From an uncultured delta proteobacterium (GTDB lineage: Bacteria; Desulfobacterota; Desulfuromonadia; Desulfuromonadales; BM103): a DNA stretch of 64,000 nucleotides. Location of the stretch: assembly GCA_963715335.1 (NCBI GenBank), contig CAVQRZ010000001.1, positions 288,001 to 352,000 of the forward strand, in the 5' to 3' direction. Positions 30,001 through 36,000 of this stretch are shown piece by piece. Each line of letters starts with the position of its first letter. Position 1 is the stretch's first letter. A program made the position numbers.

Positions 30001-33000
30001 AAGGCGCTACATGCCGCAGGGATTGAGGTGATTCTCGACATGGTTTTCAATCACACCGGTGAGGGGAACGAAAAAGGCCGAACCCTGTCGATGCGCGGTC
30101 TGGACAACAGTATCTACTACATCGTCGATCCGAAGACCGGAGCCTACGCCAACTACTCGGGATGCGGCAACACCGTCAACTGCAATCACCCGGTGGTGCG
30201 CGACCTGATCATCGATGCCCTGTGCTACTGGGTCACCGAGATGCATGTCGACGGCTTCCGCTTCGATCTGGCTTCAATCCTTGGCCGCGGACCCGACGGC
30301 GAAGTCCTGACCAACCCGCCGCTTTTGGAACGCATTGCCGGCAACCCGGTGTTGGCCAACACCAAGTTGATCGCCGAAGCCTGGGACGCCGCCGGTCTCT
30401 ACCAGGTCGGCAGTTTCCCTAATTTCGGCCGCTGGGCGGAATGGAACGGCAAGTTCCGTGATGATCTCCGCCGCTTTGTGCGCGGTGACAAAGGCATGGT
30501 TCCGGTCCTGGCCACGCGCCTTGCCGGCAGCGCCGACCTCTACCAGAAAGGCGGCCGCGCCCCCTATCACAGCATCAACTTCGTCACCAGCCACGACGGC
30601 TTCACCCTCACCGATCTGGTCAGCTACGCAACCAAGCACAACGAGGCCAACGGCGAATTCAACGCCGACGGCGACAACCACAACCTGAGCGACAACTACG
30701 GCGTCGAAGGCCCCACGGACAACCCGGACATTCTCACTCTGCGCGAACAACAGGTCCGCAACTTCGCCACCCTGCTGATCCTCGCCCACGGCGTTCCGAT
30801 GCTGCTGGCCGGCGATGAGATGGGCCGCAGCCAGGGCGGCAACAACAACGCCTGGTGCCAGGACAACGAGATCAGCTGGCTGAACTGGGACCACCTCGAA
30901 GTCAACCGGAACCGGTTCACGTTTTTCCGCAATCTGATCGCTTTCCGGCAAAAACATCCGTTGCTGCGACCGCAGCATTTCGAAGGCGAGGAAAGTGGCG
31001 AGCGCCGTCTGACCTGGCATGGCCGTGAACCCGGCCGCCCCGACTGGTCGGACACATCACAGTCCCTTGGAATGCACCTGCAGGGACAATCCGGTGAGGC
31101 CGAGATTTATCTGATCGCTCATGCCGGCAAGGCTGATGCACGCTTCAACCTGCCGCCGTCAGACAACCGTTCGCCATGGCGGCTCTTCGTTGACACAGCC
31201 CTGCCGATCGGACAGGCCAGCGCAGTCCCGGGCGAAGGAGCGGTCTCTGGTGAATCAGGGGAGTTATAACGTTATGAAAAATTCAGTGGTGGTATTGGTG
31301 CGATAGGACGCTTCACTCTGCGGCGAGCAGCGACAGAGCAACCTGCAGGATCAGCACGACCGTCATCAAAACGACACAGCCGCCGATCACCAGGGCCAGG
31401 GTTATGCCAAGGGTCTTTTTGATCGTGAACTCTCCCGTCTAGGCCTTCATGAAAAGTCTGCAGCAGCAGGATCAGGAGTCAGGCAAAGGGACCAGCCAGA
31501 GCTCCTCCCGAAATAAAGATCCGAAAGGGAAAGGGGGCCCAGTTCGACCCCCCCTGCCTTCCATAATCAATAACATTCAGCGAACCTTCTACTTCACCCA
31601 GTCCGCGTAAAGCTCGGCATTAAAGCCTATGACGAACCGGTCTTTGACCCGGTAGGTCGGTGCACGCAAATTGCCGCTCGGCCCCATGGCATGTTTGAGA
31701 ATCTCATCTTTTTCGGTTCTGGCCGAGGTGAAGTTCTGCACCTTCTTGCCCTTGGCAATAGCGATCGAAGCGGCATCTTTAAGCATCTGCCAGGCGGCCG
31801 TTTCATCGATTCTGGTTTGCTTGGCATCAACAACTTCTGCAATACTTACCTGCCTGCTCTCAAGAAACTCTTGAGCATTATTACAGGACGTTCACCCCTT
31901 GCGTAGATATGCCCAGTCAATTTTCATCCTGACCTCCCTAGGTTGTAAATTATGCCGTAAAGAGTATCATATCTTCCTTGTCAATTCCCAAGCGGCGGAC
32001 TAGAATCGTCCCTGCCATGGAACTCTTGCAATGAAGATATGCCTGGTCGAACCCTTTCATGGCGGCTCTCACGCCACCTGGGCCGAGGAGTATGCCCGCT
32101 ACAGCCGCCATGAGGTCTCCCTGCTGACATTGAGCGGGCGGCACTGGAAATGGCGCATGCACGGTGGCGCGGTCTCACTGGCAAAAACTTTTATCGCCGG
32201 CGATTTCCAGCCGGACCTGCTGCTGGTCAGCGACATGCTCGACCTGACCACCTTCCTCGCCCTGACCCGTAAAAAAACCGCCAACCTGCCGGTTGCCCTC
32301 TATTGCCATGAGAACCAACTCACTTACCCATGGTCGCCGGACGATACCGACCCCCAGCGTAACCGCGATGCCCACTATGCCTTCATCAACTACACCAGCG
32401 CCTTGGCTGCCGACACGGTTCTGTTCAACTCCCGCTACCACCTCGAGGCCCTGACCGGCCAGCTTCCGGAATTCCTCAAGGGCTTTCCGGACCACAACGA
32501 TCTCGAGAACGTCGACCTGATCAAGGCAAAAAGCAGGGTCTTGCCGCTGGGCCTCGATCTGCAGGCTCTTGACAGATACCGGCCGAAACAGCCGAAACCG
32601 GCTTCCGAACCCCCATTAATCCTCTGGAATCACCGCTGGGAGTACGACAAGAACCCGGCGGAATTCTTCCGGGCGCTCTGCCAACTGCACGATGAGGGCC
32701 GGCCCTTCCAGGTCGCGATCCTCGGCGAGGCCTACCGCAATGCTCCGGATGTTTTTGATGCGGCACGACAACAGCTTGGCGACAAGGTCGTCCAGTTCGG
32801 TTATGTTAAAAGCTTCTCCGAGTACGCCCGCTGGCTCTGGCTTGCCGATATCCTGCCAGTCACCTCACACCATGATTTTTTCGGCGCCAGCGTTGTCCAG
32901 GCAATTTACTGCAATTGCATCCCGCTGCTGCCAAGCGGCCTGGCCTACCCTGAACATCTCCCGGCAAACAGACACGCGCACTATCTCTATGCCGATTATG

Positions 33001-36000
33001 ACGCCCTGGTGAACCGCATCAGGGAAAGACTTGAGGGTCCGTCGCCGATGGACGAAGAATTACGAAACCATGTCACCCGCTACGACTGGCGGGAGCAGGC
33101 TCCACGATACGATGCTCTTTTTGAACGGCTGAAAAAACCGATTTAAGCCGACGCCTGGCCTACTCCGCAGGCTACAACATGTACCTTGCTTACAAGGCGA
33201 GAGCGAAATTGTTGCCGAAGAATTTATGTTTGTCTATGGCAGCTAACGCATTCAACCGGAACGTTTTTTGACGCGTGACACACTTTACAGACGTTGTGTG
33301 CAAACAATTCATTCACTTTGCCACCAAACACCTTTAATGCGCTGTGGCAATAGCCACAATCTTTGACCGCGCTGACAGCATGTTTCTCATGGTCAAAGGG
33401 CACAGTCCCATAGCTATTCTCATACTCTTTCTGAAATCTAAAGTTACCTCTAATGTCCGCAAAACCCTGGCTTGCGAAGACCCACAAGAAGAAGATTATG
33501 AAAATGCTTTGCTTATAAATTCCCATATTCCACCTTTATGCCGGAGGCATCCAACGGAGGCCAGCCTCGCATGCTGATTGCGGTATGTGAGTCTCCCTGG
33601 CCCTCAAAAATCCCCCTTCAGACATACCCTTATCAATATCCAGGCCTGTATTCCGAGAGGCCCCTTTCTCTGCCAATTTCTGGATGAGTCGCGCGGGGTT
33701 GCAAAATCAATTTTGCAACACTCGATTCAAAATACCCAATATTTTTTTACCTCTGCATAAAATAAGTGCCCCTCACTCAAACCCAAAAACGTTACATGCT
33801 TGCGCACAACCCATTCCTCGGAAAAAAAGAGCAACGATCCCTGGCTTTGGAAAAACCTTTTTTTCACATATAATGTAGCTCCATCAAAAAATTGAACAAC
33901 TCGTCGAAAGCCCGCTTGAGCATTCTCTATTACGGGATTGTCGGCAAGGCCATGACGCTCACAAAACAGAACAGGCGCGGTTGGAAATCTTTGGTGATGC
34001 CTTCGGCGAGGTTGAGTAGTAGACACCATAGCAACGTAGCGGTATTATTTGCCGTGCGACTACATCCCGGGGAACAGCCATGAGTGAAAAGCCACTGGTG
34101 CAGGTAGAAACATCCTCCGGCGAGATTCTGCTCGAACTCGACCGAGACAAAGCCCCGCTCAGCGTTGAGAATTTCATCGCCTATGCCAATGCGGGCCATT
34201 ATGATGGCACCATCTTCCACCGCGTGATCAAGGGCTTCATGATCCAGGGCGGCGGGTTGACTCCCGACATGGAGGAGAACCCGACCGGCGCACCGATCGT
34301 CAACGAGGCGACCAACAAGTTGAGGAACAAGGTCGGGACTGTCGCCATGGCGCGCACCGCCGAAATCGACAGCGCCACCGCCCAGTTCTTTATCAACACC
34401 GGGGATAACAAGTTTCTCGACCACGCCGGGCTCAAGCCGGAGATGTACGGTTATGCGGTGTTTGGCCAGGTAGTCGATGGCATGGACGTGGTCTACGCCA
34501 TTGAACAGCAGGCGACCGGCAGCGTCGCCGGTTACGACGACGTGCCCTTGGAACCGGTGGTTATTACGGCCGTAACAGTCCTTGACTAGCCGGGATTTAC
34601 ATGGCAACCGGGTTGAGTAACTATGTCGACACATAACCCAGGCAATTATGCCGATCCGCAAATGTGCCGCCAGTGCCGCGGGCTGTGCTGCCAGGGGCAT
34701 CCTGGCGTTTGGGTCGACCCGGAGCGTTTCTTCAAGGCCTTCGACCTGCCGAAGACCTCTTCACCGGAAACGTTGCACGGTTTGCTGCCGCGGGAGCTTT
34801 TACTGCGCGACATTGATGGCGTTGCCATCCCGGCACCGCAAACGCGTGAGAACGGGTGCATTTTCCTTGAGCGCGAGGGTTGCCAGTTGCCGGAGAATCG
34901 CCGTCCGGACCAGTGCCTGGCCCTTGTTCCAACCCTCGATACCCTTATTGATGGTGAAATCCGCTGCGTACTAAAAGCGGAAGGTTCGACTTTGGCTGCG
35001 ATAGCGGCCTGGCGCAGGTATTGGTTGCATCGCTGAGCAACCCGAAGGGACAGGCGGTCAGGCTGTTCCTCGGGCGGTTGACAAAGTTCAACATTGATGT
35101 TTAGCAAGGGCAACGGGTGATTCCTCTGTTGCCCTTGTTTTTTGTGCTCTGGGATTTAAAGTCAAAAGCAGAACCGGCGGGTCGCGTCCCGCCCGACGCC
35201 ATACTTTTGTCCGGCAACAAAAGTATGCAAAAATGCCTTCTCCTTGCGGAGGGCATCTCCTCTGCCAGATGTCTGTGACGTCAACAACCTGCTGTGATGG
35301 GGATCCGGCCCTGTGTCAAAGGGCCTGACCTTGCCGTGTGATTTACCAGGGAAAAGCCAAAACAACCCCTATCTACCAAGTCTTCACAGCAGGAGAGGCT
35401 CTCAAGGGCCTCGGCTCCTGCGGGGGAAGCGTAGGCTCCTGATCGTTTAGAACCATCCGGATTGAGGTTGCCGCCATTACGAGCCAGACATGCCCAGCGC
35501 AGCGCAGGCCTTTTTCTGCTTACTCTTTTGGGCCAGCAAAAGAGTAAGGCGCAGTCGGGGGGCGCGACCCCCGGGTTCTGATTTTGGTTTTGCCTTTAAA
35601 TTGCGGTGCACAACGAAAAAGTGCAACAGATTAACCACCTGTTGCACTTTTCTTCAGAGAAACTCCACCTACCAGGTAAAAAATATAAAACTCAATCCCG
35701 GTCTATTTCAATCGTTGTTTCATCTCGCCGGCCACGCCTGAAGATATCAGGCAATTCGAAGCCGAAATATTTCAGACACATCACCAGCAGGGCAACCGCG
35801 GCCGCCTCGTCGAGATTGCCAACCAAGGGGAGGTTGTCGGGGATGAGTTCAAAAACACCCGCGGTCGGATTCAGGAGGTAGAGCGCCGCCAGAACCCCGA
35901 GACAGAACACCACGATTTTTTTCATTGTCCTCTCACTGCTGCCGTTGACTCAGGTAATCCGTCTTTTCCAAAAAGCGCCCGGCATGCACACGGCTAGCGA

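Follow-up and report, generated by a model that had tools for sequence, protein, structure and literature searches.

The gene examined here raises the question of whether a bacterium can attach a sugar to the queuosine of its own tRNAs. To our knowledge, glycosyl-queuosine has so far been reported from animals only. The enzyme responsible there is QTMAN (GTDC1); papers citing Zhao et al. (2023, Cell) describe it as an alpha-mannosyltransferase of tRNA queuosine. According to the survey's finding, a gene of an uncultured member of the Desulfuromonadales, located on a stretch of 64,000 nucleotides (the window, i.e. the whole of the DNA analysed), might encode a bacterial counterpart acting on queuosine-34 (Q34). 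The parts of this finding that stood are the family architecture of the protein, the host's route to queuosine-bearing tRNA (Q-tRNA) and the presence of queuosine genes in the sampled carriers of the family; an argument based on two Tgt paralogues did not stand.

The reading frame is uninterrupted over its 371 codons, and stops are abundant on the opposite strand. Its start fits the N-terminus of the family, as relatives align from residue 1, and the frame contains a complete QTMAN_N domain followed by a GT1 domain. The gene is intact and, as previously stated, full-length. The neighbours named in the survey (glgX, a small cytochrome and a cyclophilin) were all found in place (Table 1). Because a divergent gene lies upstream and a convergent gene downstream, the QTMAN-family gene looks monocistronic.

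Table 1. Features of the QTMAN-family locus, in window positions.
Feature	Position	Strand	Details
GlgX-like	29203-31269	+	neighbour
Candidate promoter TTGTCA-17-TAGAAT	31978..32006	+	25 bases 5' of ATG; 10/12 matches, consensus scan only
QTMAN-family GT-B glycosyltransferase gene (P0001)	32031..33146	+	371 aa, stop codon included; ORF, Pfam
QTMAN_N domain, acceptor-side Rossmann half	32034..32555	+	residues 2-175; Pfam, conservation
GT1/GT4-type donor-side domain	32586..33068	+	residues 186-346; Pfam; WNHRWEYDK (199-207), D282-x7-Q290
Lys207 codon, invariant Lys of R-x4-K donor-phosphate motif	32649..32651	+	250/250 invariance
Gln290 codon, site of second Glu in EX7E-like motif; clade-specific E-to-Q	32898..32900	+	family alignment
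Cytochrome c7-like	33224-33526	-	neighbour
Cyclophilin	34080-34589	+	neighbour

Membership of the QTMAN family is supported by the predicted domain architecture. The Pfam model QTMAN_N (PF12038) is matched over its whole length (1-168 of 168 positions; E 1.1e-57, 194.9 bits against a cut-off of 25), and the match includes the invariant motifs GSH (13-14), HWKWR (38-42) and YxHENQxxYPW (91-101). It is followed by Glycos_transf_1 (E 1.1e-7, 32 bits against a cut-off of 26.4). The N-terminal, acceptor-side domain is no less conserved than the C-terminal one, with a mean majority fraction of 0.541 vs 0.521, and it was the more identical of the two in 32 of 41 comparisons, a pattern that favours Q34 as the acceptor. 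A search of NCBIfam gave no match above cut-off; a sub-threshold match to EpsE reached 28.5 bits, the cut-off being 400.

The C-terminal domain carries the R-x4-K and EX7E-type motifs of a GT-B donor domain, the second acid being here replaced by Gln. Arg202 and Lys207 are kept in all 250 aligned family members. In the part of a preprint that deals with this residue (10.64898/2026.06.28.735034), the K296A mutation of human QTMAN is reported to abolish manQ in human cells; Lys207 is probably the counterpart of Lys296, as judged from its position in the motif rather than from an alignment. Among 120 close relatives (63-95% identity, the present protein included), 115 have Gln at position 290; in 126 of 130 representatives of distant clusters this residue is Glu. 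In addition, Arg303, which is kept in 117 of the 120 close relatives, is replaced by Gly in this protein, and it is also absent from 27 of the 130 distant members. The changes at 290 and 303 weigh against glycosylation of Q34.

No close relative has a solved structure: in line with what had been noted before, a PDB search by sequence returned 5i45 as its sole match, with an E value of 0.0056. The AlphaFold2 model (pLDDT 94.5, pTM 0.93) has a GT-B fold with two Rossmann domains that is nearest to retaining enzymes. Almost all of the best 35 structure matches listed were retaining GT-B enzymes of GT4, GT5 and GT20 (TMq 0.44-0.74), and one was a UDP-GlcNAc 2-epimerase. The nearest folds were those of GlgM (6tvp), glycogen synthase, MshA, SPS (6kih, TMq 0.74), OtsA, BshA and PimA, at 10-17% identity. 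The protein shares with the retaining GT4 enzymes PimA, MshA, BshA, SPS and GlgM the GT-B fold, the R-x4-K and EX7E-type motifs and a cytoplasmic location; unlike theirs, its N-terminal domain is family-specific. The gene product is best explained as a member of the QTMAN/GTDC1 family, a soluble, cytoplasmic glycosyltransferase of the GT-B type (GT4-like) with a retaining mechanism.

The acceptor envisaged, Q34-tRNA, can be made in the host. Two Tgt, QueA, QueH and QueC, all claimed for this genome by the survey, were each found again, and the tRNAs for Asp (two), Tyr, His and Asn all have GUN anticodons, so that a complete route to Q-tRNA is supported. The host has a GDP-mannose route as well, shown by ManC, which scores 691.8 bits (cut-off 373). 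The second Tgt shares 49% identity with the first and retains the usual motifs. Of 91 genomes of the order, 89 have two Tgt copies, with or without the glycosyltransferase (present in 40 of 91); the two copies are an order-wide trait unrelated to QTMAN_N, and were discarded both as an argument for queuosine glycosylation and as a partner system of the enzyme.

The protein has the same arrangement as animal QTMAN, i.e. QTMAN_N joined to a GT1/GT4 donor domain in a soluble protein, and an invariant donor-motif Lys that is probably the counterpart of the residue that human QTMAN needs for manQ. Its host has Q-tRNA and the GDP-mannose route. There are also differences: identity to animal QTMAN is 28-31% in the first-pass Swiss-Prot alignments, the bacterium makes queuosine de novo and also has GluQRS, which acts on the same hydroxyl, and the Desulfuromonadales clade has Gln in place of the second Glu of EX7E. 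On the whole, we give a probability of about one half to the reading that the product glycosylates Q34 of tRNA; it is from homology that we infer the acceptor position, the choice of tRNA, the hydroxyl and the sugar. The C-terminal half would bind a nucleotide sugar, with GDP-mannose as the default guess, Arg202 and Lys207 contacting the diphosphate and position 290 the ribose of the donor. The family-specific N-terminal half would hold the anticodon loop of a tRNA that carries queuosine, and a hexose would be moved to a hydroxyl of the Q34 cyclopentenediol. The modification would be non-essential and patchy across lineages, and would fine-tune decoding or protect the tRNA.

QTMAN_N was found in 40 of the 91 sampled genomes of the order, a frequency consistent with the 92 of 232 counted earlier. 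Tgt is encoded in all 91, and hence in all 40 carriers. In a set of 50 QTMAN_N-positive genomes from at least eight phyla, 48 encode Tgt and 49 encode QueA; the two that lack Tgt have QueA in one case and QueG in the other. In Chloroflexota, all eight sampled carriers have Tgt, and none of 14 genomes without Tgt has QTMAN_N (p 0.36 by chance, hand calculation). Genes for queuosine-tRNA accompany QTMAN_N in every carrier of the three samples, although these co-occurrence tests have almost no statistical power because Tgt is near-universal in the groups sampled.

The gene is accessory, and its distribution is patchy even inside genera (e.g. three of four and four of five genomes). Cultured carriers of the family include Desulfuromonas soudanensis, Geothermobacter hydrogeniphilus HR-1 and Geomonas diazotrophica Red69. 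No stop interrupts the reading frame of any of the 40 copies in the order, which argues for purifying selection and not decay. Proteins from other phyla are 46-71% identical, a degree of conservation that fits a universal, conserved acceptor. None of 14 model organisms has the family, which would explain why glycosyl-queuosine has gone unseen in bacteria.

A further decoration of Q34 has to be taken into account, because the host also encodes GluQRS. In the sections of two papers that cover this point (PMC10690763, PMC12518689), GluQRS is described as esterifying the allylic hydroxyl of Q34 in tRNA-Asp, the hydroxyl that in animals is taken by mannose. As is proposed for the glycosyltransferase, GluQRS (YadB), the bacterial glutamyl-queuosine tRNA-Asp synthetase, decorates the cyclopentenediol after queuosine synthesis, and its gene is likewise accessory, non-essential and stand-alone; it differs in having an unrelated fold (a truncated GluRS), in forming an ester and not a glycoside, and in co-occurring with the glycosyltransferase gene in the host instead of replacing it. 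GluQRS was found in 37 of the 40 carriers of QTMAN_N vs 48 of the 51 non-carriers in the order, so that a mutual exclusion of the two was rejected. The presence of GluQRS, acting on the same hydroxyl of the same tRNA as animal QTMAN, counts against glycosylation of Q34. As GluQRS takes the allylic hydroxyl of Q34 in tRNA-Asp, the glycosyltransferase may be its competitor, may work under different conditions, or may have tRNA-Tyr, -His or -Asn as its substrates. Tentatively, and with the odds slightly against it, we propose that Q34 receives a sugar in many bacteria (about 3-4% of species in the earlier count; 40 of the 91 genomes sampled from the order), and that in Desulfuromonadales this sugar, attached by an enzyme whose donor site is altered at Gln290, coexists or competes with glutamyl-queuosine on one hydroxyl, giving three alternative Q34 decorations per cell.

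Gene neighbourhoods of the family proved uninformative. In the host, no queuosine gene lies beside the glycosyltransferase gene, as already remarked in the survey: queC is 31 kb away, and tgt, queA, queH and gluQRS are on other contigs. Five assemblies have all of these genes on a single large contig, and there the gene is separated from tgt and queA by 0.38 Mb or more. In a single locus (L057) tgt directly adjoins it. The 1005 ORFs of 80 loci were clustered (the gene itself was called in 73), and of the 259 neighbours lying no more than two genes away, 130, from 42 loci, were scanned against Pfam. Eight of these 130 are tRNA-linked, which is not above expectation. A conserved operon, including one with queuosine genes, was rejected, the sole recurrent partners, mostly in Saprospiraceae, being an alpha/beta hydrolase (in 10 loci) and a PrsW protease (in 7). 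Domain fusions were equally rejected as a clue to function. The search among proteins of 651-2000 aa gave one match, joined to a peptidase, and that among proteins of 439-2000 aa, with a 250-aa query, gave 21 matches with LysM and dioxygenase as extra domains; no RNA-related domain appeared in either. Fifteen tRNA genes were found in 1.17 Mb around the family loci, one of them for tRNA-Tyr at about 6 kb from the gene and none for tRNA-Asp, -His or -Asn.

The structure matches may point to a different acceptor. Sucrose-phosphate synthase, GlgM, MshA, BshA and OtsA glycosylate small soluble acceptors, and that the solved folds closest to the model belong to such enzymes counts against a tRNA acceptor. 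The protein might accordingly use a phosphorylated sugar, a polyol or an organic acid and make a compatible solute or the precursor of a thiol or cofactor, the tRNA role in animals being a later change of acceptor. We regard this as unlikely, yet far from negligible. Lys40 and Arg42, conserved in the N-terminal domain, could hold a phosphate, the patchy distribution of the accessory gene is one that osmolyte genes often have, and glgX lies upstream both here and in a close relative (L010), with glgE near the gene in another locus (L043). However, glycogen genes are near in only two of the 42 loci, no phosphatase partner occurs among the 130 neighbours, identity to these enzymes is very low, and the N-terminal domain is the family-specific one, common to the tRNA enzyme.

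A role in the envelope, as a glycosyltransferase with a lipid-linked or polysaccharide acceptor, would agree with the generic GT1/GT4 matches of the C-terminal domain, with the weak match to EpsE and with the JGI label 'glycosyltransferase involved in cell wall biosynthesis' carried by many relatives. It is nevertheless improbable, given that the gene stands alone, that no other glycosyltransferase, flippase, polymerase or polysaccharide-export family was found among the 130 flanking proteins of 42 loci, and that surface-glycan enzymes diverge fast, in contrast to the cross-phylum identity seen here. The replacements at positions 290 and, in this genome, 303 could mean that the enzyme has been weakened or its sugar donor changed in the lineage; this too is quite improbable, since Gln290 is itself kept among the close relatives, all the other motifs are intact, no copy in the order has a stop, and Arg303 is also missing from some distant members. 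Finally, the second Tgt might point to 7-deazaguanine in DNA or in another RNA as the acceptor instead of tRNA Q34. This is very improbable: that Tgt is present regardless of the glycosyltransferase and resembles the first, and no phage relative emerged, viral contigs giving one weak locus, phage records none, and PHROGs and PADLOC no families.

If Q34 is indeed glycosylated by these bacterial enzymes, glycosyl-queuosine would no longer be an animal speciality, animal QTMAN would have a clear prokaryotic relative, and the effect of a queuosine-linked sugar on decoding and tRNA cleavage could be studied in a simple bacterial system; the presence of GluQRS in the same cells would pose a new question, that of decorations competing for one hydroxyl. 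If it is not, the QTMAN name now spreading in UniRef and NCBI would be an over-transfer needing correction. Both databases already name family members by transfer, as the survey had remarked, and our literature searches for DUF3524 and PF12038 returned no mention, the former again as before. In a protein-atlas search, the top clusters were all bacterial.

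The gene at 32031-33146, which the survey had described as a full-length QTMAN relative with both the family-specific N-terminal domain and a GT1 domain, is real: its frame is uninterrupted over 371 codons in the ORF listing, the complementary-strand frame opposite it is broken by stops, and Pfam matches the QTMAN_N model from end to end, followed by Glycos_transf_1 (see table). Searches of NCBIfam (no match over cut-off), PHROGs and PADLOC assigned the protein to no family. The statement that no close solved structure could be found by sequence also held, as the Protein Data Bank returned only a generic GT1 fragment (5i45, E 0.0056).

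Coordinates of the glycosyltransferase gene, its domains and the other features discussed (C19 and C25, contigs of the host's own genome; L057, a locus from a Chitinophagaceae MAG)
Feature	Location	Strand	Remarks
Glycosyltransferase gene	window 32031-33146	+	371 codons
QTMAN_N (PF12038)	residues 2-175		model positions 1-168 of 168; E 1.1e-57
Glycos_transf_1	residues 186-346		C-terminal to QTMAN_N; E 1.1e-7
Ser-Gly codons 302-303	window 32934-32939	+	
DUF4301 gene	window 27029-28528	+	499 aa; complete domain, E 3.7e-171
glgX-like gene	window 29203-31269	+	upstream
ArsC family (seleno)protein gene	window 31589-31927	-	112 aa; between glgX-like and glycosyltransferase genes
Small cytochrome gene	window 33224-33526	-	downstream, convergent
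Cyclophilin gene			downstream, beyond small cytochrome gene
queC	window 63854-64000, continues past window end	-	31 kb downstream of glycosyltransferase gene
TGT gene	C25 114887-115942	-	full-length, bacterial-type
TGT gene	C25 131569-132624	+	full-length, bacterial-type
GluQRS gene	C19 134491-135312	+	360.7 bits vs NCBIfam cut-off 276.7
tgt/QTMAN-family pair in L057, one gene	10001-11101	+	sole such pair in 80 loci
tgt/QTMAN-family pair in L057, other gene	11239-12300	-	sole such pair in 80 loci

The family is large. Relatives at E <= 1e-5 made up 5870 of 8000 candidate proteins, the best 120 of which share 63-95% identity with the protein and come mostly from Desulfuromonadales-like sources; 1014 representatives of 50% identity clusters were found at E <= 1e-30. 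Cultured carriers include Desulfuromonas soudanensis, Geothermobacter hydrogeniphilus HR-1, Geomonas diazotrophica Red69 and Portibacter marinus. A pattern search of species-representative genomes gave 599 matches, 595 of which encode a relative; the best 80 of these (46-71% identity) derive from Desulfobacterota, Bacteroidota, KSB1, Marinimicrobia, Chloroflexota, Verrucomicrobiota, Krumholzibacteria, Acidobacteriota, Myxococcota and Planctomycetota. UniRef names the Desulfuromonas soudanensis protein tRNA-queuosine alpha-mannosyltransferase, and NCBI calls relatives 'tRNA-queuosine alpha-mannosyltransferase domain-containing protein'; the label is therefore present already, by transfer, as the survey had said. 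The QTMAN family itself is already in databases; its bacterial function is putative. What is new here is the independence of the glycosyltransferase from the second Tgt, its coexistence with GluQRS, the glutamyl-queuosine tRNA-Asp synthetase, which would act on the same hydroxyl of queuosine-34, and a clade-specific E290Q at the donor site.

The consulted passages of the QTMAN/GTDC1/manQ literature (including PMC11695743 and PMC13015402) mention neither a bacterial homologue nor glycosyl-queuosine in bacteria, although the founding study, Zhao et al. (2023), may do so. The term 'DUF3524', for which the survey had found no papers, is indeed absent from the searched literature, and so is 'PF12038'. 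The family is absent from all 14 model organisms searched, among them E. coli, which makes queuosine; this would explain the silence on bacterial members.

In GT-B enzymes, the acceptor is bound by the N-domain. In this family the N-domain is no less conserved than the donor domain (mean majority fraction 0.541 vs 0.521), and its identity was the higher of the two in 32 of 41 comparisons. Invariant or nearly invariant residues are S13-H14, W39-K40-W41-R42 and Y91-x-H93-E94-N95-Q96-x-x-Y99-P100 in the N-domain, and N200-H201-R202-W203-x-x-D206-K207, F283-F284-G285, P301 and E308 in the C-domain. R202 and K207 are present in all 250 aligned family members and, lying where the C-domain begins, form the R-x4-K motif that holds the donor diphosphate in GT4 enzymes. 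According to a preprint (10.64898/2026.06.28.735034), human QTMAN requires Lys296 for the formation of manQ, its mannosylated queuosine product; K207 is probably the counterpart of this residue, judging from its position in the motif rather than from an alignment.

The protein departs from the family at two positions. In the EX7E-type motif, D282-x7-E290, the second acid is Gln in the protein, as it is in 115/120 close relatives, and Glu in 126/130 distant representatives. Gln290 is a conserved clade trait, and it may indicate a different sugar donor. At position 303 the protein has Gly, where Arg is found in 117/120 close and 103/130 distant relatives; 91 of the 120 close relatives have Arg-Arg at 302-303, and only two have Gly303. 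Because all 40 copies in the sample of the order are uninterrupted frames, decay of the gene is argued against.

The presumed substrate of the glycosyltransferase is available in the host, whose genome amounts to 3.30 Mb in 43 contigs. The part of the queuosine pathway re-examined there agrees with the survey: two TGT genes (one adjoining queA), QueA, QueH and QueC were all found. The host also encodes two tRNA-Asp(GUC), one each of tRNA-Tyr, tRNA-His and tRNA-Asn, and ManC (GDP-mannose). queC, at 31 kb, is too distant for a cluster with the glycosyltransferase gene.

The best reading of the gene product is a bacterial queuosine-tRNA glycosyltransferase, which we put at about even odds. Its chief competitor is the reading as a glycoside synthase of this fold class that works on a small acceptor. 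A confident AlphaFold2 model (pLDDT 94.5, pTM 0.93; input alignment of 42 sequences) shows a predicted two-Rossmann GT-B fold, and the solved folds closest to it, at 10-17% identity, nearly all belong to retaining GT-B enzymes, namely GlgM, archaeal glycogen synthase, MshA, sucrose-phosphate synthase (best TMq, 0.74), OtsA, BshA and PimA. Co-occurrence with queuosine genes is consistent with the tRNA reading, albeit weakly. Among 50 QTMAN_N-positive genomes, those of our 80 relatives' loci on longer contigs, 48 have TGT and 49 QueA; since one of the two lacking TGT has QueA and the other QueG (338.6 bits), all 50 carry a tRNA-queuosine gene. The sample of the order comprised 91 genomes with a completeness of 90% or more: 40 of them (22 of 47 genera, and patchily inside genera) carry QTMAN_N, and the sample gives no discrimination because TGT is present in all 91. 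Among 121 Chloroflexota genomes (one, the unpublished G177, was scored solely as TGT-positive and QTMAN_N-negative), 107 carry TGT and 8 carry QTMAN_N; each of the eight also has TGT, and QTMAN_N is absent from the 14 TGT-less genomes, a non-overlap with a probability of 0.36 by chance (hand calculation). No counter-example, i.e. QTMAN_N without tRNA-queuosine genes, thus emerged from the three samples, which are tests of little power. A phylum with a patchy distribution of tgt is Actinomycetota.

The two Tgt paralogues, which the survey had counted in favour of a role in queuosine modification, do not serve as an argument. The host's two proteins (49% identity) both keep the usual motifs. Of the order's 91 genomes, 89 have two copies, one has a single copy and one has three, irrespective of the glycosyltransferase; the two copies are therefore an order-wide trait. 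Mutual exclusion between GluQRS and QTMAN_N was likewise ruled out: GluQRS occurs in 85/91 order genomes, 37/40 with QTMAN_N and 48/51 without. In the 50-genome sample it exceeded the cut-off in 4/4 Desulfobacterota and in 0/46 other carriers. The ester of natural gluQ, the GluQRS product, lies at the allylic OH (PMC10690763), and the mannose of animal manQ at the allylic 3-OH (PMC12518689; preprint 10.64898/2026.06.28.735034), so that in this bacterium a manQ-like product on tRNA-Asp would compete with gluQ. Alternatively, the enzyme might act on another tRNA or on the other hydroxyl.

Gene neighbourhoods favour no partner. Clustering of 1005 ORFs called in the 80 loci, with the glycosyltransferase gene recovered in 73, revealed no partner conserved across phyla; 10 loci have an alpha/beta hydrolase 3' of the gene and 7 have a PrsW protease, most of them from Saprospiraceae. 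Pfam was run on 130 of the 259 genes within two genes of the glycosyltransferase gene (42 loci): none matched a glycosyltransferase, flippase or polysaccharide-export family, and eight, not above expectation, are linked to tRNA or translation (TrmA-like methyltransferase and ProRS, two each, TyrRS, SmpB, ThiI and RsmB/F). A BLAST search of the 1005 ORFs with the host's Tgt, QueA, GluQRS and ManC gave one real case, L057, where tgt and the QTMAN-family gene are immediate, convergent neighbours. Where a single large contig holds all these genes (five assemblies), tgt and queA lie 0.38 Mb or more from the gene. Fused forms of the family are rare and uninformative on function. In Marinimicrobia only, genes for TyrRS, which charges a queuosine tRNA, and SmpB lie immediately upstream of the QTMAN-family gene and divergent from it (L045, L082), or further upstream with one gene intervening (L059).

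In the window, the glycosyltransferase gene stands alone, among the glgX, small cytochrome and cyclophilin genes already reported by the survey. A promoter-like TTGTCA-17-TAGAAT, a consensus match only, ends 25 bases 5' of its ATG. The ArsC-like gene on its upstream side is a member of a known selenoprotein family (NCBIfam NF041106, 'ArsC family (seleno)protein'; 127.3 bits vs cut-off 85). It has a single in-frame TGA at codon 12, in the motif G-U-T-S-C, and only its 65-aa tail is visible in an ORF listing without TGA readthrough. No link between this gene and the glycosyltransferase gene was seen among relatives; the TGA is kept in 12/12 matches from 26 related genomes searched. Further upstream, the DUF4301 gene is flanked by genes for a universal stress protein and a thioesterase.
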